64,000 bases of DNA from Escherichia phage p000v. Shown here one piece after another: positions 6,712 through 18,627 of this stretch (its first letter is position 1; each line of letters starts with the position of its first letter). A program made the position numbers and the translations under genes. The notes beneath the pieces are model-generated. The model did not search any database. It was given only the letters and a program-made list of their open reading frames with translations, and was not told the DNA's origin. Location: the sequence record NC_055781.1. One strand, given 5' to 3'.

Positions 6712-6774
6712 AAATTAACGGGATAAATACTATCCCGTTTGGAGTAATGTCTATCAACCTATACTGAGGAATAT

Positions 6775-9030
6775 ATGCAAGTAACTAAGAGCAGTGGTGT
6801 ATCCCAAAATTTTGATGCACAGAAAATTATTCAAGTCTTAACTTGGCAGTGTGAAGGAACACAAATCGACCCATATGAATTGTACGAAGAAATTAAGACC
6901 CATCTTGTTGACGGGATGAGCACCAAAGATATTCAGAAGATTTGTATTAAAGTTGCAGCTAACTCGATTTCTGTCGAAGAACCTGATTATCAATATGTTG
7001 CCGCTAAAGGATTAATGTTTGCGCTTCGTAAAGATGTATATGGACAGTTTGAACCTCCTGCTTTTATCGACCATATCTCGTATTGTGTTAATGAAGGCAA
7101 ATACGATCCTGAGTTGTTGTCTAGATATTCTGCAGAAGAAATCATTTATCTTGATTCTCGGATTAAACATGAGCGAGATTTTGATCTGACTTATGCTGGT
7201 GCTATGCAGCTTAAAGAAAAATACCTGGTTAAAGATAAAACAACTGGGAAGATTTATGAAACTCCACAGTTTGCTATCATGGCTATCGGTATGGCCTTAC
7301 ATCAAGACGAAACTCATGACCGTTTGAAACATATTATTCGTTTTTATGATGCCGTTTCTACTCATCAAGTTTCATTGCCTACTCCAATTATGGCAGGTGC
7401 TCGTACTCCAACTCGCCAGTTCTCTAGTTGTGTAGTTATTGAAGCCGGTGATTCGTTAAAATCTATTAACAAAACTTCAGCATCAATTATCGAATATATT
7501 TCTAAACGAGCTGGCATTGGTATTAACGTTGGTATGCTTCGTGCAGAAGGTTCTAAGATCGGTATGGGTGAAGTTAGACATACGGGTGTTATTCCATTCT
7601 GGAAACATTTCCAAACTGCAGTAAAATCTTGTTCTCAAGGTGGTATTCGTGGTGGTGCTGCTACAGCGTATTATCCGATGTGGCACTTAGAAGTAGAGAA
7701 CCTATTAGTTCTGAAAAATAACAAAGGCGTGGATGAAAACCGTATTCGACATATGGACTACGGAATTCAGATTAATGACCTCATGATGGAACGCCTTGGT
7801 AAAAATGATTATATTACTTTATTTAGCCCTCACGAAATGTCAGGCGAACTATACTACTCGTTCTTTGAAGATCAAGATAAATTCCGTGAGCTTTATGAGA
7901 AAGCTGAAAAAGACCCAACAATCAGAAAGAAAAGAATCAAAGCACTAGAACTCTTTGAATTGTTCATGACTGAACGCTCTGGTACTGCTCGAATTTATCC
8001 ACAATTCGTTGATAACACGAACAACTACACTCCATTTATTCGTGAAAAAGCTCCAATTCGACAGAGTAACTTATGTTGTGAAATCGCTATTCCAACTAAT
8101 GATGTGAATGGTCCTGATGCTGAAATTGGTTTATGTACGTTATCTGCTTTTGTATTAGATAAATTTGATTGGCAAGACCAAGATAAAATTAATGAACTGG
8201 CCGAAGTACAAGTACGTGCACTTGATAACTTGTTAGACTATCAAGATTATCCGGTTCCAGAAGCTTTAAAAGCTAAAAAGCGTCGAAACCTCGGTGTTGG
8301 TGTGACGAACTATGCCGCATGGTTAGCTTCTAACTTTGCTTCATATGAAGACGCTAACGATTTGACTCATGAATTGTTTGAGAGATTGCAATATGGCCTT
8401 ATCAAAGCTTCAATCAAACTCGCCAAAGAAAAAGGACCTTGTGAGTATTATTCAGACACTAAATGGTCTAGAGGCGAATTACCTATCGACTGGTACAATA
8501 AAAAGATTGACCAAATCGCAGCCCCGAACTACGTCTGTGACTGGGAAGAACTTCGAGCTGAACTCAAAGAACATGGAATTCGTAACAGCACACTTAGTGC
8601 TCTCATGCCATGCGAATCAAGCAGTCAAGTCTCAAATAGCACAAACGGTATAGAGCCACCTCGTGGACCTGTAAGTATTAAAGAATCTAAAGAAGGCAAC
8701 TTCCGACAGGTTGTTCCTAATATTGAACACAACATGGGTCTTTATGACTATGCGTGGAAACTCGCTAAGAAAGGTAATAAGCCTTATCTGACACAAGTTG
8801 TTATCATGTTAAAATGGGTATGCCAATCTGCTTCTGCTAATACTTACTATGACCCTGCAGTATTTGAGAAAGGTAAAGTGCCAATGTCGGTAATGCTTGA
8901 CGATCTGCTTTACTTCTGGTACTTTGGCGGAAAAAACCTCTACTATCATAACACTCGTGATGGGTCAGGTACAGATGACTACGAATTAGAAACACCTAAA
9001 GCTGAAGATTGTTCTGCTTGTAAGCTTTAA
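6775..9030 (+). CDS. nrdA: Aerobic ribonucleoside-diphosphate reductase large subunit
   Basis: 751 aa; class Ia RNR alpha sequence with conserved catalytic-site cysteines (NLCCEIA) and C-terminal CxxC tail; T4 position. Confidence 0.95.
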   Translation: MQVTKSSGVSQNFDAQKIIQVLTWQCEGTQIDPYELYEEIKTHLVDGMSTKDIQKICIKVAANSISVEEPDYQYVAAKGLMFALRKDVYGQFEPPAFIDHISYCVNEGKYDPELLSRYSAEEIIYLDSRIKHERDFDLTYAGAMQLKEKYLVKDKTTGKIYETPQFAIMAIGMALHQDETHDRLKHIIRFYDAVSTHQVSLPTPIMAGARTPTRQFSSCVVIEAGDSLKSINKTSASIIEYISKRAGIGINVGMLRAEGSKIGMGEVRHTGVIPFWKHFQTAVKSCSQGGIRGGAATAYYPMWHLEVENLLVLKNNKGVDENRIRHMDYGIQINDLMMERLGKNDYITLFSPHEMSGELYYSFFEDQDKFRELYEKAEKDPTIRKKRIKALELFELFMTERSGTARIYPQFVDNTNNYTPFIREKAPIRQSNLCCEIAIPTNDVNGPDAEIGLCTLSAFVLDKFDWQDQDKINELAEVQVRALDNLLDYQDYPVPEALKAKKRRNLGVGVTNYAAWLASNFASYEDANDLTHELFERLQYGLIKASIKLAKEKGPCEYYSDTKWSRGELPIDWYNKKIDQIAAPNYVCDWEELRAELKEHGIRNSTLSALMPCESSSQVSNSTNGIEPPRGPVSIKESKEGNFRQVVPNIEHNMGLYDYAWKLAKKGNKPYLTQVVIMLKWVCQSASANTYYDPAVFEKGKVPMSVMLDDLLYFWYFGGKNLYYHNTRDGSGTDDYELETPKAEDCSACKL

Positions 9031-10699: not shown

Positions 10700-10728
10700 T
10701 TTACATACCACAAGGATTGTGGTACAAT
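10699..10728 (+). promoter_or_regulatory. T4-type early promoter upstream of rnlA
   Basis: GTTTAC 10699..10704 (overlaps denA stop), 17-bp spacer, TACAAT 10723..10728. Confidence 0.55.
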
Positions 10729-10746
10729 TTTAAAAAAACTAACTGA

Positions 10747-11880
<1,134 letters not shown>

Positions 11881-11882
11881 TG

Positions 11883-11912
11883 GTTTACAAACACCAAGGA
11901 TGGTGTTACTAT
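11883..11912 (+). promoter_or_regulatory. T4-type early promoter upstream of alc
   Basis: GTTTAC 11883..11888, 17-bp spacer, TACTAT 11907..11912, leader CAACAACACGAGGAGAAAA. Confidence 0.6.
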
Positions 11913-11942
11913 GGCTTTTATCAACAACACGAGGAGAAAATT

Positions 11943-12443
11943 ATGAATATGCAATTGATTACTAACGATATGGTTGTGGCAGCATTTGGTGATTCTACAG
12001 ATGGAATCCGAGTCTTTAAGAAAGGACGTCCAGTTGGTTATCTTACTGACCTTCGTGTTACACTGGCCAAAAATCTTAAAAAGAAAGTAAAACAAAAAGA
12101 GTATTCCACCCGATACGCTGAAGAGAAACGCGAAGCGATGCCAGAAGCAGTTAATGCCATGGTAGAATTTCTTCAAAACAATTTGACTAAATATGACGCT
12201 AATGTGTTCATTAATATTAGTCAACCAAACGTACATATCGCAGGTATAAAATTCTACATCATTTGCGACCCTCTTACCGACAAATTCAACCGTCTCGGAA
12301 TTTCAAGTCCATATCATACAGCAGAAGAGTTGTGTGTATTGTTTGAATCGTACAAAATCCAGTGTGATGGTTTGAAAACCGTTCTTATCAATGGATTATC
12401 CCGAGATGAAATCATTGAGATTATTAAAACATGCTTAAAGTAA
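11943..12443 (+). CDS. alc: Alc (unfolds host nucleoid / blocks transcription of cytosine DNA)
   Basis: 166 aa from ATG 11943 (MNMQLITNDMVVAAFGDS...), matching T4 Alc length; the track ORF 11880..12443 is a read-through of the promoter cassette. Confidence 0.7.
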   Translation: MNMQLITNDMVVAAFGDSTDGIRVFKKGRPVGYLTDLRVTLAKNLKKKVKQKEYSTRYAEEKREAMPEAVNAMVEFLQNNLTKYDANVFINISQPNVHIAGIKFYIICDPLTDKFNRLGISSPYHTAEELCVLFESYKIQCDGLKTVLINGLSRDEIIEIIKTCLK

Positions 12444-12787
12444 ATGCATCATATATTGTAGTGGCAGCTTTTGCGGTTGTTGCTACTGTAACAATAGCAT
12501 TTCTGAACCATAAAGTCGATTCGCTGAATACCGAATTGGCTACAGTAAAAGAGACTGCTAAAAACAATGCTAAAGTATTAGACGACTTCAAGATTCAATA
12601 TCAGTCTATAGAAGAAATGACATATAAGAATCGTGTTTTAGTTGACCAACTTAAGGCCGAAAATGAAAAGCTCCGTAAGGATTCGAAGAAGAAGAACGTG
12701 GTGGCAAGTAAACCAGGATTGGTCGAAAAACAAATCAACAAGTCCTTCGATTCCTTTGCAGAAGACCTCAGGAAGCTCTCAGAATGA
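12431..12787 (+). CDS. i-spanin-like protein (pseT.3 position): N-terminal transmembrane helix plus periplasmic coiled coil
   Basis: 118 aa; hydrophobic segment SYIVVAAFAVVATVTIAFL then heptad-rich charged domain; followed by overlapping lipoprotein ORF. Confidence 0.55.
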   Translation: MLKVNASYIVVAAFAVVATVTIAFLNHKVDSLNTELATVKETAKNNAKVLDDFKIQYQSIEEMTYKNRVLVDQLKAENEKLRKDSKKKNVVASKPGLVEKQINKSFDSFAEDLRKLSE

Positions 12788-13074
12788 TTAAATTAACCGC
12801 AGTTGTATTATCTATTGGTATTTTGGCTGGATGTGCCCAGGATGTGCCCTTAAGCCCTAAAGAAACTTTACATCCGCCATGGCCTGAATCTATTGTTGAA
12901 TATAATCAGAAATGGCAAGTAAAGGTTATTGATGGTAATCCATGGGTTGGAATGCCATTTGAAGACTCTCAAGAATTTCGTATCTGGTTAAACGACGTAA
13001 AAAGATATGTACATGACCAGAAGACTATGTTATGTTATTATCGTAGTGGTTTAAAAGAGGAAAAATGTCAATGA
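12784..13074 (+). CDS. o-spanin-like outer-membrane lipoprotein (pseT.2 position)
   Basis: 96 aa; lipobox signal MIKLTAVVLSIGILAGC-AQ; proline-rich; overlaps i-spanin stop (ATGA). Confidence 0.55.
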   Translation: MIKLTAVVLSIGILAGCAQDVPLSPKETLHPPWPESIVEYNQKWQVKVIDGNPWVGMPFEDSQEFRIWLNDVKRYVHDQKTMLCYYRSGLKEEKCQ

Positions 13075-13289
13075 CTAAAGAACAGCATGAATACATTAAA
13101 GGGCTTATCTATGAATCTGAAATGGCGGCTATGATTTATGGGCGCCAGATTCAACGATTAGAATCTTTGCCTCCAACTAACGACCGCTTGTTAGTTCAGT
13201 CTCGTGCTAATCTGAAAAATGAATATCAGAATAAGTGGGCAGTAGCGACTAAAGCTCTTCACGAGTATATTGAATCTTTAGTAAAATAG
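13065..13289 (+). CDS. Hypothetical small protein
   Basis: 74-aa ORF overlapping the o-spanin 3' end; no motif recognised. Confidence 0.4.
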   Translation: MSMTKEQHEYIKGLIYESEMAAMIYGRQIQRLESLPPTNDRLLVQSRANLKNEYQNKWAVATKALHEYIESLVK

Positions 13290-13318
13290 TTTACAAACTC
13301 TCAGGAGCAGAGTATAAT
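13289..13318 (+). promoter_or_regulatory. T4-type early promoter
   Basis: GTTTAC 13289..13294, 17-bp spacer, TATAAT 13313..13318. Confidence 0.6.
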
Positions 13319-13346
13319 GCTCCTATGGATAATTGAGGAAATCTAA

Positions 13347-13645
13347 ATGAAAACATTACTAGAGAATTACATCAAACGGTCTGATGAGTATATTGATATC
13401 TGTCGTGGAATGTCACTTGGCAATTATGACAAAGATGCAGCAAAGGCACTAGATGAAGCAGGTAAAGCTCTTCGTAAAGCTGCTAAAGAAAAAGGGTTGG
13501 ATTTGCAACAACTCAAAAGTCATATGATTAAATTTATTTCTTCAAACGTTAGAAGTACGTCAATTAATAAAAACGTTGCTGAAATTAATAAAGACCGGCG
13601 CGAGCATAACATTCGTATTCTTGAAATTTTCTTAGGAATAAAATA

Positions 13646-13646
<1 letters not shown>
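13347..13646 (+). CDS. Hypothetical early protein
   Basis: 99-aa ORF with RBS GAGGAAA and own early promoter; lysine-rich, helical. Confidence 0.45.
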
Positions 13647-14732
<1,086 letters not shown>

Positions 14733-14733
<1 letters not shown>

Positions 14734-14924
14734 TGAAACGATTATATGAAGTGATTGAGGCCATCGAACAGCATAAAGAATACTTGTTTGTAGCCTGGCC
14801 TTTAGTAAATGGACAGTTCGGTATTGATGTGCTGGACTATGAGCATGAAGAACGTTTGGACGGTGGTATATTTGATAACGTCGACCAGGCAATTGAATGG
14901 TTAAATGAAAACTATGTACGATAA
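14733..14924 (+). CDS. Hypothetical small acidic protein
   Basis: 63-aa ORF starting at the pseT stop (TAATG overlap). Confidence 0.4.
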
Positions 14925-15129
14925 ACATCATGAAATCGAAGATGAAGCATACAAAATGCTTCGTAAACTAGTGGGACTTAATATGAGTCCTACATTAATC
15001 AACAAACTCGCAGGAATTCGTAATGATCTGAATACTCGTTACAAAGGCGAATATCATGTAGAGTTTGTTCCTGTAGGTGAACCAACCGAGCGATTTGTTG
15101 TTCGAGTTAAAGTAAATACTGTGCACTGA
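14905..15129 (+). CDS. Hypothetical small basic protein
   Basis: 74-aa ORF overlapping preceding ORF by 20 nt. Confidence 0.4.
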   Translation: MKTMYDKHHEIEDEAYKMLRKLVGLNMSPTLINKLAGIRNDLNTRYKGEYHVEFVPVGEPTERFVVRVKVNTVH

Positions 15130-15136
15130 GGTAATT

Positions 15137-15412
15137 ATGTTCCCTAAATATTCTGAAATTGTAAAGGTAGTTTTTAGCCAGATTATTGCAAATCATTTCT
15201 TTGATAAGCTGGATACTGCTACTGAGCTTAAGGTCCACTCTGAACTACTCTACGTTTTGAATACGCTAGTGCCTGACCAAGTGGATTCTGTGTCTGTTAC
15301 ATTGTTGCCCAGCTCTGCTCATGTGATTGTTGTGTTTGGACTTGACGCTGATCTAGTAATTCAGTGTGAAGTTGATTTCGATTCACAAGAAATTAAATGT
15401 TTTGCAATTTAA
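15137..15412 (+). CDS. Hypothetical small protein
   Basis: 91-aa ORF; acidic. Confidence 0.4.
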   Translation: MFPKYSEIVKVVFSQIIANHFFDKLDTATELKVHSELLYVLNTLVPDQVDSVSVTLLPSSAHVIVVFGLDADLVIQCEVDFDSQEIKCFAI

Positions 15413-15442
15413 GTTTACAACATGGTGGAGTTGTGATACTAT
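15413..15442 (+). promoter_or_regulatory. T4-type early promoter
   Basis: GTTTAC 15413..15418, 17-bp spacer, TGTGA-TACTAT 15437..15442, leader CAACAAATGAGGAAA. Confidence 0.6.
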
Positions 15443-15470
15443 AACTCTACCAACAAATGAGGAAATCGAA

Positions 15471-15707
15471 ATGCTAAGTGAAACCCCAATTACAGTACAC
15501 GAATTTCAGATTAAAGTAAAAGAATTTGCTCAAGCACTCATCAATAAAGTGTCTGAACGTTTCCAGGATGCAACATTACGAGTTATTCAAGAATCTCCAC
15601 GTTCTTTTCTCATAATCGTTAATCCTAAAGATGGTGACCAGATTACTAGCCTTAAATTAGGCAGTGACGGTTTAGTTGAAGCAACTCGCGTATACGGAAC
15701 ACTATAA
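15471..15707 (+). CDS. Hypothetical small early protein
   Basis: 78 aa from ATG 15471 downstream of the early promoter (track ORF 15366..15707 reads through the promoter). Confidence 0.4.
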   Translation: MLSETPITVHEFQIKVKEFAQALINKVSERFQDATLRVIQESPRSFLIIVNPKDGDQITSLKLGSDGLVEATRVYGTL

Positions 15708-15827
15708 TGAGAGCTATCTCATTACTATCGAGAATGGTCATAAATCTGAGCACTACCAACTTAGCCTGTCTAATCCGGTTAAAGGTATTGTTGAATCAGA
15801 ATCTGTTTATATCTCCTAAGGATTGTT

Positions 15828-16820
15828 ATGTTACCTGTCGTCGGAAAACTTATTTCTCCAAAAGAACTAGCTGAGATTATTCCTTTGTCGGAAGCTTACG
15901 CATCACAAGTGGCTTCTCATCGCGAACAAGTTAATTCGATTATGAACGGTGAAGACCCACGCAAACTTATTGTTGTAGGTCCTTGTTCAATTCATGACCC
16001 TATTGCTGCTGTTGAATACGGCAAACGTCTGGCTGAACTTCAAACTCGTCTTCCTAATGTTCTGTTAGTGATGCGCGTTTATTTTGAAAAGCCTCGAACT
16101 ACCGTAGGTTGGAAAGGTCTTGTAAATGATCCATATCTTGACGGAAGTTTTGATATGAACCACGGTCTTATAGTTGCACGAACATTGTGTCGTAAACTTC
16201 TACGTATGGGACTTCCATTAGCAACTGAAGTATTAGACCCATTCACTATTAAGTATCTTTCTGGTATTTTCTCATGGGTTGCTATTGGCGCACGTACGAC
16301 TGAAAGTCAGACACATCGTGAAATTGCTTCAGGTCTACCGATGTGCGTAGGCTTCAAGAACGCAACCAATGGTTCTATTAAAGTAGCTACAGACGCGATG
16401 TATAGTGCCGCCTGGCCTCATCGGTATATGGGTATGGACGTCGATGGTACTGTAGGCATTGTTGAAGCTGAAGGTAATCAGAATACGCATATCGTATTGC
16501 GTGGCGGGACCAACGGCCCGAACTATCATTCTTCTGATATTCAAGAAGCTTCTAACAAAGCAAGGGCAGTAGGTCTGAATCATTATGTAATGGTTGACTG
16601 TAGCCATGCAAACGCTGATGGGCATTATAGCAATCAAATTGGTATTGGTAAAAATTTAGCAGCTAATGATTTGGTCAAAGGAATTATGATAGAATCGTTC
16701 CTACATGAAGGAAATCAAAAAATTTCTGATAATATGTCCTATGGCGTTTCCGTTACCGATGCGTGCATCAGTTGGGAACAAACTAAAGAGCTGTTAACTT
16801 ATATTAATAAGGTTCAATAA
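15828..16820 (+). CDS. 3-deoxy-D-arabino-heptulosonate-7-phosphate (DAHP) synthase, class I alpha (AroG/AroF/AroH-like)
   Basis: 330 aa; hallmark motifs LIVVGPCSIHD, VMRVYFEKPRTTVGWKGLVNDP, IGARTTESQTHRE, GFKN, RGG..PNY, VDCSHAN align with E. coli AroG/AroH as recalled; N-terminus ~15-25 residues shorter than the E. coli enzymes. Confidence 0.85.
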   Translation: MLPVVGKLISPKELAEIIPLSEAYASQVASHREQVNSIMNGEDPRKLIVVGPCSIHDPIAAVEYGKRLAELQTRLPNVLLVMRVYFEKPRTTVGWKGLVNDPYLDGSFDMNHGLIVARTLCRKLLRMGLPLATEVLDPFTIKYLSGIFSWVAIGARTTESQTHREIASGLPMCVGFKNATNGSIKVATDAMYSAAWPHRYMGMDVDGTVGIVEAEGNQNTHIVLRGGTNGPNYHSSDIQEASNKARAVGLNHYVMVDCSHANADGHYSNQIGIGKNLAANDLVKGIMIESFLHEGNQKISDNMSYGVSVTDACISWEQTKELLTYINKVQ

Positions 16821-17401
16821 TGAAAGCTAGCACATACCTTCAGATTGCATATCTGATTTCTCAAGAATCAAAATGTTGTTCATGGAAAGTTGGTGCCGTC
16901 ATTGAAAAAGATGGACGCATTATTTCTACAGGTTATAATGGCTCTCCTTCAGGTGGTGTTAACTGTTGTGAACATGCATCCGAAAACGGTTGGTTGAAGA
17001 ATAAACCAATCCCAGTCATCGTTGCTGGGCATAAAGAAGGCACTACAGCATTTGGACGGGTGGATAATTTTGTTTTGGCTAAAGAACATCGGGCTGCTCA
17101 TAGTGCATGGTCCGCTAATAACGAAATCCATGCAGAATTGAATGCAATTTTGTTTGCCGCTCGTAAAGGTAATTCTATTGAAGGTGCTACGTTATATACG
17201 ACGCTTTCTCCATGTCCTGATTGTACTAAAGCTATTACGCAGTCAGGTATTAAAAAGGTCGTATACGCAGAATTATACGACCGATCTCCTGAAAATTGGG
17301 CAGATATTCTAAAACAAGCTGGTATTGAAGTAATTCAGTACTCTCGTAATAATCTTCGTTCTCTGAATTGGGAACAAATCCTAAACTTTTGTGGTGAATA
17401 A
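16820..17401 (+). CDS. cd: dCMP deaminase
   Basis: 193 aa; MKASTYLQIAYLISQESKCCSWKVGAVIEKDGRIISTGYNG...; zinc motifs HAELNA and PCPDC; matches T4 Cd. Confidence 0.9.
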   Translation: MKASTYLQIAYLISQESKCCSWKVGAVIEKDGRIISTGYNGSPSGGVNCCEHASENGWLKNKPIPVIVAGHKEGTTAFGRVDNFVLAKEHRAAHSAWSANNEIHAELNAILFAARKGNSIEGATLYTTLSPCPDCTKAITQSGIKKVVYAELYDRSPENWADILKQAGIEVIQYSRNNLRSLNWEQILNFCGE

Positions 17402-17402
17402 T

Positions 17403-17699
17403 ATGATTTTAACTGAACAAGAAACTATGGTTCTTCGTGAACGTATTAAAACTATTCTGTCTGTAGGCGTTCATTGTGTTGTATTTGAAAAGGCTAACGG
17501 TGATGTACGCACTATGTTTGCTTCGCGCGATGAACTTGAAGTCAAATATGAAAATAACAATCCAGCAACAGAAGTTCGTTATGAACCTCGTGAATCAGTT
17601 CGAGCATTCGATACCAAGTTAGGTCAGTGGCGTTCTTTCCGCCTTGATAAAGTAATTTCGGTTGATGGTACTCCGGTCGAACGTTTGCTTCTTATGTAA
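17403..17699 (+). CDS. Hypothetical protein (31.x-position ORF)
   Basis: 98 aa from ATG 17403, two nt after cd stop; no motif recognised. Confidence 0.45.
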   Translation: MILTEQETMVLRERIKTILSVGVHCVVFEKANGDVRTMFASRDELEVKYENNNPATEVRYEPRESVRAFDTKLGQWRSFRLDKVISVDGTPVERLLLM

Positions 17700-17726
17700 T
17701 ATGCTTTACGAATAGTATGGTATTAT
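17698..17726 (+). promoter_or_regulatory. MotA-dependent middle promoter for gene 31
   Basis: aatATGCTTTA MotA box (TGCTTTA 17702..17708), 12-bp spacer, TATTAT 17721..17726. Confidence 0.5.
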
Positions 17727-17756
17727 TAATCTATCGTCAAACAACAAGGAAATAAG

Positions 17757-18089
17757 ATGTCTGAAGTACAACTCCCAATTCGTGCTGTTGGTGAATATGT
17801 CATTCTGGTTTCTGAACCCGCTCAAGCAGGTGATGAAGAAGTTACCGAATCAGGACTTGTGATTGGTAAACGTGTTCAAGGTGAAGTTCCTGAACTATGT
17901 GTAGTTCATTCTGTAGGTCCTGATGTTCCTGAAGGTTTTGTTGAAGTCGGTGATTTGACTCCACTACCAGTTGGACAAATTCGAAATGTTCCACATCCAT
18001 TTGTGGCTTTGGGACTTAAACAACCTAAAGAAATTAAACAGAAATTCGTAACATGCCACTATAAAGCTATTCCGTGTCTTTATAAGTGA
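17757..18089 (+). CDS. 31: Co-chaperonin gp31 (GroES analogue for capsid protein folding)
   Basis: 110 aa; [34 protein letters not shown]...[10 protein letters not shown] matches T4 gp31 closely. Confidence 0.9.
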
Positions 18090-18213
18090 TATAAATAACT
18101 ATATGAAGAGAACACTCTTCTAAGCGGTAGCCTACAACTGAGAGACTTGTCGAAAGAAGGTGAAATTCAGACGAACGTGGCTACTAAATATTATCTCGAA
18201 TTGAGAATTTAAA

Positions 18214-18462
18214 ATGATTAAACAATTACAACACGCTCTTGAACTGCAACGCAACGCATGGAATAACGGTCACGAAAACTACGGCGCGTCAATTGATGTT
18301 GAAGCCGAAGCACTGGAAATCCTGCGTTATTTCAAACACCTGAATCCTGCTCAGGCTACTCTGGCTTCTGAACTGGAAGCTAAAGATGAATTGAAATATG
18401 CTAAGCCTCTGGCTTCTGCAGCACGCAAAGCAGTTCGTCATTTTGTTATTACTTTGAAATAA
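18214..18462 (+). CDS. rIII: Lysis inhibition accessory protein rIII
   Basis: 82 aa, T4 rIII length; located immediately downstream of gene 31 as in T4. Confidence 0.6.
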   Translation: MIKQLQHALELQRNAWNNGHENYGASIDVEAEALEILRYFKHLNPAQATLASELEAKDELKYAKPLASAARKAVRHFVITLK

Positions 18463-18627
18463 TTGCTATCATGCGTCAGCAAAAGGTTAGCTGTGTAAGT
18501 CATGGTAGGTATGATGACGGGTTTATGGTTATCCCGGTCGTTAAATATCCAAAAACCTATGTTCCCCTTGAGGGCTTGCGCAGGCAATGTCAATAAGTCC
18601 TGCATTTTCATTTAAAGAGAATTTATA

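Follow-up and report, generated by a model that had tools for sequence, protein, structure and literature searches.

An ORF at 15828–16820 in the 64,000 nt stretch of Escherichia phage p000v analysed here (record NC_055781.1; hereafter, the window) encodes a type I-alpha DAHP synthase, as had been observed in an earlier note on this DNA, and its residues indicate that the enzyme probably runs without the host's usual feedback brake. The account favoured here, which as a whole we hold to be somewhat probable, is of a catalytically competent, early and feedback-insensitive DAHP synthase that would sustain aromatic supply. DAHP synthase sets carbon entry to the shikimate pathway, and its feedback-resistant forms are a staple of industrial strain engineering. 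The presence of the gene in phages was already known, an identical protein being annotated in GenBank phage records; what is new is the synteny and single clade of the phage copies, the remodelled pocket and the acquisition scar.

The coding sequence and the catalytic residues of its product are as follows.

15828–16820, + strand: DAHP synthase CDS, 330 aa plus TAA stop, ATG start
C53, H260, E289 and D311 (phage numbering): metal ligands, from alignment
88–91 (phage numbering): KPRT motif, with PEP ligands R83, K88, R156, K177 and R225

The ORF matches Pfam PF00793 (E=5.2e-75, 252 bits against a cut-off of 25.5), the NCBIfam aroFGH equivalog TIGR00034 (427.7 bits, cut-off 173.2) and NF009395 (455, cut-off 343), and residues 1–330 align with positions 8–337 of a 341-position full-length profile (605.9 bits, E=3e-182). 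The best PDB match is E. coli AroF (6agm, E=5e-105). PF00793, TIGR00034 and the 6agm match support the class I-alpha call, and all four signature motifs quoted for it were found in the protein (EKPRTTVGWKGL at 87–98, AIGARTTESQ at 152–161, VGFKN at 174–178 and DCSHAN at 257–262). The profile search and AroG/AroF/AroH alignment that had been proposed as a check gave a significant PF00793 match and retained catalytic residues: in AroG numbering, the metal ligands Cys61, His268, Glu302 and Asp326 and the PEP/E4P residues R92, K97, P98, R99, T100, G163, A164, R165, K186 and R234 are invariant in 29/29 sequences of the phage clade described below. An AF2 model (pLDDT 91.4) places the regulatory hairpin beta6a/beta6b at strands 198–203 and 209–214, and its predicted (beta/alpha)8 barrel superposes on solved N. 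meningitidis and E. coli DAHP synthases (Foldseek TM 0.95, rmsd 1.5–1.6 Å).

The phage enzyme is 51%, 48% and 44% identical to E. coli AroF (6AGM), AroG and AroH, respectively, and has the same fold and all of their metal, PEP and E4P ligands; like AroF, it has Gly at the Tyr/Phe selectivity position. It differs from the three in internal deletions of 5 and 2–3 residues and in a shorter C-terminus. The N-terminus, described earlier as 15–25 residues shorter than in the host enzymes, is in fact 7–9 residues shorter than in AroH/AroG/AroF, and the internal and C-terminal losses make up the remainder of a total deficit of 18–26 residues. Assignment to a single isozyme (AroF, AroG or AroH) fails, with scores of 386 for the AroH model (cut-off 463) and 363 for the AroG model (cut-off 568). 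Membership of the KdsA family (KDO8P synthase) is not indicated, the NCBIfam scan at E≤0.001 returning DAHP synthase families only and the KPRT motif being present.

The gene has pseT and cd as its flanking landmarks and is missing in T4, where the T4 record shows only cd.5, cd.4, cd.3, cd.2 and cd.1 in this interval; the earlier description was right on both points. The surrounding features are:

13834–14733, + strand: pseT, polynucleotide kinase/phosphatase, the upstream landmark
15414–15442, + strand: early-promoter-like site, (G)TTTACA-17-TACTAT with TG before the -10 hexamer, found by consensus match
15471–15707, + strand: cd.2 homologue (DUF7320), the upstream neighbour
15817–15822, + strand: Shine-Dalgarno TAAGGA, 5 nt before the DAHP synthase ATG, read from the sequence
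16820–17401, + strand: cd, dCMP deaminase, the downstream neighbour, its ATG overlapping the DAHP synthase TAA stop

An in-frame TGA at 15792–15794, upstream of the ATG, rules out a longer N-terminus. From the overlap of stop and start codons, the gene appears to be translationally coupled to cd. It had also been placed next to frd, td and nrdAB; these share its strand, but frd and td are about 9–10 kb upstream and nrdA/nrdB about 6–9 kb upstream, and so are not adjacent.

The suggestion that the gene has no promoter of its own fits the 120-nt leader, which contains no sigma-70-like, MotA-box or late-promoter match. A late or middle promoter of its own was rejected, since TATAAATA (late promoter) is absent within 1 kb upstream of the gene and the TGCTT core of the MotA box does not occur in the leader. 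TATAAT at 15703–15708 was likewise rejected as a -10 element, as it belongs to a duplicated cd translation-start region. The nearest candidate promoter is the site at 15414–15442, between cd.3 and cd.2, which was found by consensus matching in a region where such sites are no commoner than in shuffled sequence; the T4 early promoter Pe133295 (T4 record) occupies the equivalent cd.3/cd.2 intergenic position. This site is a candidate promoter for a cd.2-DAHPS-cd transcript, and no terminator-like site was found on the + strand within 12500–18500. Host-type regulation does not seem to have been carried over with the gene: the TyrR-box pattern matches the window no more often than chance predicts, and nowhere near the gene, and no Rfam match was found in 12500–18500 at E≤1.

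The phage of the window belongs to Mosigvirus (the RB69 group). A gene 95–100% identical is found in about 138 phage records, amounting to ~138 of the ~140 Mosigvirus-level records, and 211/211 phage records have the ORF at full length. The annotated DAHP synthases of Mosigvirus and other T4-like phages are identical or at least 98% identical proteins, encoded between cd.2 and cd, with no gene-level difference from the window's copy. YP_009100756.1 of Shigella phage Shf125875 and aroF YP_009592745.1 of E. coli O157 typing phage 3 represent the same gene, and PHROG 5045 contains these phage DAHP synthases. Overall, the phage of the window is ~95–96% identical to its best record, and the DAHP synthase gene is 99.7% identical. 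DAHP synthase is named among the auxiliary metabolic genes of unknown role in papers on Mosigvirus (bioRxiv 10.1101/2020.01.19.911818), phiC120 (PMC8022965) and Kanagawavirus KLB31 (PMC11845039). The novelty implied in the earlier note therefore falls away, homologues being widely annotated in GenBank phages and mentioned in papers; the literature searched held passing mentions only, and no functional study (enzyme assay, expression, knockout) of any phage DAHP synthase.

Five T4-like genera share this location of the DAHP synthase gene, with pseT on one side and cd on the other. In neighbour-joining trees, the phage enzymes form one clade apart from cellular sequences (200/200 bootstraps), ~50–55% identical to their closest cellular homologues, and so the phylogeny that had been proposed to separate host from phage copies groups the gene with phages. 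The dN/dS values against the four other genera are 0.14–0.22, reflecting purifying selection, and synonymous sites are saturated across the genera of the clade. Matches from 'Acinetobacter phage MD-2021a' (45–48% identical) were rejected as phage copies because the contigs are bacterial, with clpA, cobS, bioH and fadH as neighbours.

The inhibitor pocket is a regulatory feature of the subfamily that catalysis does not require, and it is here that the phage enzymes depart from their cellular relatives. The canonical aromatic inhibitor pocket (P150, Q151, D155, S180, F209 and N-terminal cap residues 6–7, in AroG numbering) is not retained in the phage enzyme, where the replacements are P150I, Q151K, D155G, S180P, F209Y and T223A.

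I141, K142, G146, P171, Y200 and A214 (phage numbering): remodelled pocket residues, from alignment

Among 98 cellular homologues, 111 positions are at least 95% conserved, and only five of these (Q151K, D155G, S180P, F209Y and T223A) have switched and become fixed in the phage clade (n=29). Four of the five (Q151K, D155G, S180P and F209Y) fall within a 14-residue inhibitor-site list (Fisher p=5.7e-5), a list taken from the literature, positions 150, 151, 180 and 209 having been inspected before the enrichment test; they amount to 4/8 of the conserved inhibitor-pocket positions. P150 is Ile in 28/29 phage-clade sequences, and the other replacement residues are close to universal (K and G in 28/29 each; P, Y and A in 29/29 each). 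D6 and D7 of the N-terminal cap are missing in all 29, and 48–52 residues precede the metal Cys in phages compared with 58–95 in cellular enzymes.

In AroG, P150L gives full feedback resistance and S180F and F209A/S are also resistant, and the inhibitor main chain is contacted by the Q151 and S180 side chains (PMC9529685, PMC5879953). Phage changes share positions 150, 180 and 209 with engineered feedback-resistant alleles (aroG P150L, S180F, F209S/A and D146N; aroF P148L). They differ from these in being natural, in combining several changes with an N-terminal truncation, in their replacement residues and in their conservation across genera, and the equivalents of D146 (aroG D146N) and of AroF P148 (aroF P148L) are unaltered. 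The earlier idea that the phage enzyme could be deregulated thus gains support, mostly for a reason other than the one offered, namely the clade-specific replacement of inhibitor contacts; the N-terminal deficit to which it appealed is only 7–9 residues.

Parallel changes are seen in a second phage lineage, unrelated to the first. Aeromonas phage HJ05 encodes a type I-alpha DAHP synthase (WEV89307.1, annotated as 'hypothetical protein') in which P150, Q151, S180 and F209 are likewise all replaced. HJ05 and three metagenomic relatives have P150A, Q151H/S, S180P and F209V, with all catalytic residues kept, while 106–111 of 118 cellular relatives retain P, Q, S and F at these positions. The HJ05 enzyme is only 38% identical to the one described here, has a longer N-terminus, is encoded in a 79-kb non-T4-like genome and forms a separate clade, grouped with the T4-like clade in only 7/100 bootstraps.

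In the favoured account, the phage enzyme would condense PEP and erythrose-4-phosphate to DAHP, and would be made early in infection from the cd.2-DAHPS-cd message. The allosteric pocket, which binds Tyr, Phe or Trp in AroF, AroG and AroH, is remodelled and lacks the N-terminal cap contributed by the neighbouring subunit, so the aromatic amino acids that switch off the host isozymes most likely do not inhibit the phage enzyme. Since host transcription is blocked after infection, the host could not respond by derepressing aroF/G/H. The phage enzyme may thus keep carbon entering the shikimate pathway, the host's other six enzymes finishing the route, and could provide Tyr, Phe, Trp and further products of chorismate to a phage proteome rich in Tyr and Phe; in 50 long ORFs of the window, Phe makes up 4.16% of residues and Tyr 4.14%. 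T4 and RB69 thrive without the gene, and any benefit must therefore be conditional. Cyanophage carbon-metabolism genes are likewise single-enzyme or short-pathway auxiliary metabolic genes of T4-like phages through which a phage supplies the flux-controlling step. The same logic, with the phage carrying that step and the host doing the remainder, holds for NAD+ salvage in KVP40, as cited in PMC11845039; the pathway here differs from both. If the enzyme is naturally deregulated, it would allow a clean test of the idea that lytic coliphages reprogramme the supply of amino acids or chorismate as well as that of nucleotides, and its multiple substitutions would make it a ready feedback-resistant scaffold.

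An ordinary Tyr-sensitive AroF-like isozyme, adding dosage in place of host enzyme that is not remade after shut-off, with its regulation unchanged, is an unlikely alternative. It agrees with the Tyr-sensitive AroF being the closest solved relative, with the Tyr-type Gly at the S211 position and with the beta6a/beta6b hairpin of the model. The phage pocket also keeps D146, the Pro at the AroF P148 position and L179, all sites of known feedback-resistant mutations, and some inhibitor binding may survive, because F209Y is conservative and the Lys at 151 could bind a carboxylate. Set against this are the replacement of 4/8 conserved pocket positions together with P150I, at sites where single substitutions in AroG abolish inhibition, the loss of the cap residues throughout the clade and the parallel changes in HJ05.

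The pocket may instead have been re-specified, not disabled, with control up or down by another small molecule or a protein partner during infection, a reading to which we give a low probability. The replacement residues are nearly invariant across genera with saturated synonymous sites, and within phages the pocket positions are more often at least 95% conserved than the remaining positions (11/14 compared with 121/317, p=0.003), a pattern more in keeping with a ligand-binding or interface role that has been kept than with plain loss. However, the pocket lies at the tight-dimer interface, and so structural constraint alone could account for its conservation; a candidate ligand is lacking, and in the HJ05 lineage three of the four positions have been changed to other residues.

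A third reading, a rationale put forward in the earlier note, takes the main purpose to be chorismate for pABA and folate, feeding the cycle of phage DHFR, thymidylate synthase and dCMP hydroxymethylase. This is the weaker of the metabolic readings, and we regard it as quite improbable. The gene has its strand and early region in common with frd, td, nrdAB and cd, and, with a deregulated DAHP synthase, chorismate would stay in supply even in the presence of abundant aromatic amino acids. Against this, folate is recycled as a cofactor and little new synthesis is needed; frd and td are ~9–10 kb off, and the stretch is variable among T4-like phages and holds unrelated small ORFs. The annotated region contains no phage pab or fol biosynthetic gene, and the same nucleotide pathway operates in T4 and RB69, neither of which has the gene. 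A connection with the arabinosyl-hmC modification of Mosigvirus DNA was dropped, because RB69 has this modification (PMC6024577) and lacks the DAHP synthase gene.

That the gene is a passenger of no benefit, or has changed substrate (e.g., to arabinose-5-phosphate, as in KDO8P synthase), is very improbable: its absence from T4 and RB69 and arrival as a cassette by illegitimate recombination would suit such a reading, but it is under purifying selection, intact in every record and conserved in position in five genera, its KPRT motif is invariant, as is every E4P/PEP ligand, and the NCBIfam scan at E≤0.001 yielded only DAHP synthase families.

The junctions of the DAHP synthase gene with cd.2 and cd carry an acquisition scar.

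15702–15716, + strand: left direct-repeat copy, CTATAATGAGAGCTA, holding the stop codon of cd.2 and a 'ghost' start codon for cd
15717–15819, + strand: cassette leader, remnant of another cd.2-type gene (3' end), by similarity to CIP9 cd.2
16815–16829, + strand: right direct-repeat copy, CAATAATGAAAGCTA, in which the stop codon of the DAHP synthase overlaps the true start of cd

The two copies match at 13/15 positions, an imperfect direct repeat in which the start of cd is duplicated. RB69, without the DAHP synthase gene, represents the empty site, and its single cd.2/cd junction aligns with the left junction upstream and with the right junction downstream. In a pairwise comparison (E=1e-7), the leader shows 51% identity to the last 37 aa of the cd.2 homologue in Kanagawavirus CIP9, an ORF which the complete cd.2 of the window matches over its full length; this relic is missing in RB69 and is probably non-functional. 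Recent capture from the host was rejected, since 0/5,426 complete E. coli genomes hold at least 80% of the cassette; the best match, at 31% coverage and 65.6% identity, is to host aroG. It is also contradicted by a wholly phage-like GC3 (0.29, compared with 0.51 for host aroF) and by the ~50–55% identity of the best cellular protein. The favoured account places the DAHP synthase gene in an old T4-like phage lineage, and the Mosigvirus copy probably came as a cassette from another T4-like phage. A more speculative reading, of low probability, sees in phage DAHP synthases a distinct type I-alpha regulatory class, with a pocket that was rewritten, not simply broken, and then kept under strong purifying selection, the enzyme being either locked on or answering a different infection-relevant effector, arising independently in at least two phage lineages and spread recently through Mosigvirus as a cassette.

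Two short ORFs at the left junction were rejected as genes and are by-products of it: a 55-aa ORF (15707–15874) owes its presence to the ghost cd start, and a 47-aa ORF (15676–15819) contains the reading frame of the cd.2 relic.

The DAHP synthase gene of the window (15828–16820, + strand) encodes 330 aa and lies between cd.2 and cd, its TAA stop overlapping the ATG of cd (16820–17401). An in-frame TGA is present upstream, at 15792–15794, and since no start codon occurs between it and the ATG, the short N-terminus is genuine. The features around the gene are:

15414–15442: candidate promoter between cd.3 and cd.2, nearest to the gene; consensus match (G)TTTACA-17-TACTAT, TG before the -10 hexamer
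15702–15716: left copy of the direct repeat bracketing the cassette (DAHP synthase and its leader), CTATAATGAGAGCTA; imperfect, 13/15 match to the right copy
15717–15819: leader, a relic 3′ end of a second cd.2-type gene; 51% identity to the C-terminus of the CIP9 cd.2 homologue (E=1e-7)
15817–15822 (+): Shine-Dalgarno sequence TAAGGA of the DAHP synthase, rated good
16815–16829: right copy of the direct repeat, CAATAATGAAAGCTA; imperfect, 13/15 match to the left copy

The earlier note had recognised a DAHP synthase from four motifs and proposed a Pfam search; all four motifs are present, and profile and structure matches agree. The protein is matched in three profile libraries, including Pfam (DAHP_synth_1, E=5.2e-75) and NCBIfam (aroFGH equivalog TIGR00034, 427.7 bits against a cut-off of 173). 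The nearest solved structure by sequence is that of the Tyr-sensitive AroF of E. coli (6agm, E=5e-105), and identities to E. coli AroF, AroG and AroH are 51%, 48% and 44%. An AlphaFold2 model built with 59 homologues as input (pLDDT 91.4) superimposes on the N. meningitidis and E. coli enzymes with a TM score of 0.95 and an rmsd of 1.5–1.6 Å. The catalytic residues, the loss of which would speak against function, are invariant in all 29 phage sequences aligned, both those binding metal (C61, H268, E302 and D326, AroG numbering, used throughout) and those binding PEP/E4P (R92, K97, P98, R99, T100, G163, A164, R165, K186 and R234). The protein is very probably a catalytically active DAHP synthase.

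The feedback site is a different matter, as shown by the residues listed below.

Feedback-site residues in the phage clade (n=29) and in cellular homologues (n=98)
D6/D7 (N-terminal cap): absent in 29/29 phage; present in cellular homologues
P150: Ile in 28/29 phage; Pro in 91/98 cellular
Q151: Lys in 28/29 phage; Gln in 98/98 cellular
S180: Pro in 29/29 phage; Ser in 97/98 cellular
F209: Tyr in 29/29 phage; Phe in 97/98 cellular

Among the 111 positions that are at least 95% identical in the 98 cellular homologues, the phage clade has a different, fixed residue at only five (Q151K, D155G, S180P, F209Y and T223A). Four of these are among 14 positions listed for the inhibitor site or for feedback resistance (Fisher p=5.7e-5; several pocket positions were viewed before this test, while the list itself is literature-derived, from PMC9529685), and the fifth, T223A, lies in the regulatory hairpin at a distance of two residues from V221. 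In AroG, P150L confers full feedback resistance, and S180F and F209A/S are also feedback-resistant; Q151 and S180 (AroF Q152 and S181) use their side chains to contact the main chain of the inhibitor, and D155 forms a stabilising salt bridge (PMC9529685, PMC5879953).

Phage enzymes have 48–52 residues ahead of the metal-binding Cys, compared with 58–95 in cellular enzymes. The N-terminal segment forms a cap over the pocket of the adjacent subunit, as seen in the AroG-Phe structure and from the AroF mutants N8K and delta-Ile11. An N-terminus 15–25 residues shorter than in the host enzymes had been reported in the earlier note as a possible cause of deregulation. By alignment the truncation is 7–9 residues, so that deregulation finds its support in the pocket substitutions plus this smaller truncation. 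Within the phage clade, 11 of the 14 pocket positions are at least 95% conserved, against 121/317 elsewhere (p=0.003), and the replacement residues are themselves almost invariant across genera. This pattern argues that the feedback site was rewritten and has since been preserved instead of decaying, which would fit an enzyme locked in its active state or a constraint at the dimer interface. Rewriting followed by retention across genera also leaves room for a new effector acting at the pocket.

A type I-alpha DAHP synthase, annotated as 'hypothetical protein', is also encoded by Aeromonas phage HJ05 (OQ594355.1, 4899–6062), which has a 79 kb genome that is not T4-like; the enzyme is 38% identical to that of the window. 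HJ05 and three metagenomic relatives (proteins P0121–P0123) retain all catalytic residues and carry P150A, Q151H/S (Q151H in HJ05), S180P and F209V, at positions where 108, 106, 110 and 111 of 118 cellular relatives keep P, Q, S and F, respectively. The HJ05 and T4-like clades were each recovered in 100/100 bootstraps and were grouped together in only 7/100; on this tree, the parallel pocket changes look like convergence. About 6–8 of the 118 cellular type I-alpha enzymes (P0124–P0240) lack the canonical pocket (Q146, A150, A151, G180, H209), and may represent an unrecognised, differently regulated subfamily.

Database searches returned a tight phage and metagenomic group at 55–98% identity, followed by a cellular plateau at 50–55% that spans several phyla and includes enterobacterial AroF (52%). 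A neighbour-joining tree of 127 sequences recovered the 29 of phage type as monophyletic in 200/200 bootstraps, the window gene grouping with other phage copies and not with host enzymes. Kimura distances were 0.71 for the nearest cellular sequence, 0.78 for AroF, 0.89 for AroG and 1.00 for AroH. Long residence in phages is also indicated by the GC3 (0.29 compared with 0.51 in host aroF), by dN/dS values of 0.14–0.22 against four other genera, with synonymous sites saturated, and by the absence of the phage gene from the complete E. coli genomes searched. The gene belongs to an old phage lineage under purifying selection and was not captured recently from the host.

Genes on one strand run in the order frd, td, nrdA, nrdB, denA, rnlA, alc, pseT.3, pseT.2, pseT.1, two ORFs, pseT, cd.4, ORF227, cd.3, cd.2, DAHP synthase, cd, 31.1, 31 and rIII. 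The gene is missing from T4, as the earlier note had stated (the T4 locus reads cd.2, cd.1, cd), and in RB69 cd.2 abuts cd. Five genera (Mosigvirus, Kanagawavirus, Marfavirus, Winklervirus and Bragavirus) have a DAHP synthase gene in the interval from pseT to cd. A homologue of T4 cd.1 (30% identity, E=2e-10) separates the gene from cd in Serratia phage X20, which places the slot between cd.2 and cd.1.

Compared with RB69, the window carries about 1.1 kb extra (about 15717–16816), and the single cd.2/cd junction of RB69 matches the left junction of the window upstream and the right junction downstream. The bracketing repeat duplicates the cd start codon. The complete cd.2 of the window matches the CIP9 cd.2-homologue ORF over its full length. 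The simplest reading is that a cd.2 fragment plus DAHP synthase would have been imported from a different T4-like phage, one that has the gene after cd.2, joining on the left at microhomology in the cd start and on the right by homologous recombination. The junction is neutral as to whether the empty site of RB69 is ancestral or arose when recombination between the repeats removed the cassette. Two small ORFs, 15676–15819 (47 aa) and 15707–15874 (55 aa), overlap the left junction, where some GenBank records annotate a small hypothetical protein; they are probably not genes, being explained by the cd.2 relic and the duplicated start codon.

The cassette is 99.6–100% identical among three cassette-bearing Mosigviruses, in which pseT (92.6–96.8%), cd (92.1–94.8%) and rnlA (90.9–97.5%) are more divergent. 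Across the database, the gene is at least 99% identical in 100 phage records and 95–99% in 38 more, while pseT is 90–95% identical in 134. Within 10700–18470, the longest near-identical stretch is 15717–16820, and flanking long genes differ by 3–9%. This suggests that the cassette spread or swept recently through Mosigvirus, although the region is mosaic and some short genes are equally conserved. The window cd.3 (15137–15412) shows only about 71% identity to that of Shf125875, O157 typing phage 3 and RB69; here these three share 99.6% identity among themselves. The neighbours of cd.3 are 95–100% identical, so the window carries a replaced allele that forms a sharp mosaic patch.

The 120-nt leader contains no sigma-70-like site, MotA-box core or late promoter, in agreement with the earlier proposal that the gene has no promoter of its own, and no terminator-like site was found on the + strand of 12500–18500. 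The candidate promoter between cd.3 and cd.2 occupies the position of the early promoter Pe133295 in the T4 record. On consensus matching, early co-transcription with cd.2 and cd is therefore plausible. The best sigma-70/T4-early-like match of the region (13290–13318, TTTACA-17-TATAAT, 11/12) is immediately upstream of the ORF231 homologue, which precedes pseT. In the window, 18 copies of the T4 late-promoter core TATAAATA were counted (6.75 expected; no shuffle reached 18). Most are on the - strand from 27 to 61 kb, which fits a block of late genes in that part. In RB69, cd (6743–7252) is annotated as 169 aa (510 nt), compared with 193 aa (582 nt) in the window and T4, and a 76-nt unannotated gap precedes 31.1; its 3′ end may be truncated or mis-called.

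The account somewhat favoured is that the enzyme would be expressed early and be active, escape inhibition by Tyr, Phe and Trp, and so benefit the phage: once host transcription has been shut off, it would maintain the flow of carbon into the shikimate pathway, which the host's downstream enzymes would complete. Tyr (4.14%) and Phe (4.16%) are abundant in the phage proteins that the window encodes, which fits a role in amino acid supply. Provision of chorismate-derived cofactors, including the folate suggested in the earlier note, is possible but rated lower, because cells recycle folate, the gene is not accompanied by pab or fol genes, and the nucleotide pathway is the same in T4 and RB69, which do without the DAHP synthase.

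The window belongs to Mosigvirus (RB69-group Tevenvirinae), the best GenBank records being about 95–96% identical over 25 kb. Annotated products 100% identical to the DAHP synthase exist, for example 'aroF' of E. coli O157 typing phage 3, and more distant copies (58–77% identity) are carried by phages of Enterobacter, Edwardsiella, Klebsiella, Serratia, Erwinia, Providencia and Proteus. That the gene exists is thus already known. Three papers mention it in passing: it was suggested to be an auxiliary metabolic gene, of unknown function, in Mosigvirus (bioRxiv 10.1101/2020.01.19.911818), and was listed as a domain match in phiC120 (PMC8022965) and as an amino-acid-related auxiliary gene in a Kanagawavirus (PMC11845039); the literature searched contained no enzymology, expression data or genetics of any phage DAHP synthase. 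It is ordinary in kind, being an auxiliary metabolic gene that is well annotated in T4-like enterobacterial phages. Added here are a specific, testable claim of a rewritten feedback pocket, the parallel changes seen in a second lineage of phages, and a clear scar left by the acquisition. The DAHP synthases of 'Acinetobacter phage MD-2021a' (CAKLQH020000056.1 and CAKLQH020000043.1) are not phage copies, as clpA, cobS, bioH and fadH lie alongside; these contigs, with two aroF genes, appear to be a bacterial chromosome mislabelled as phage.
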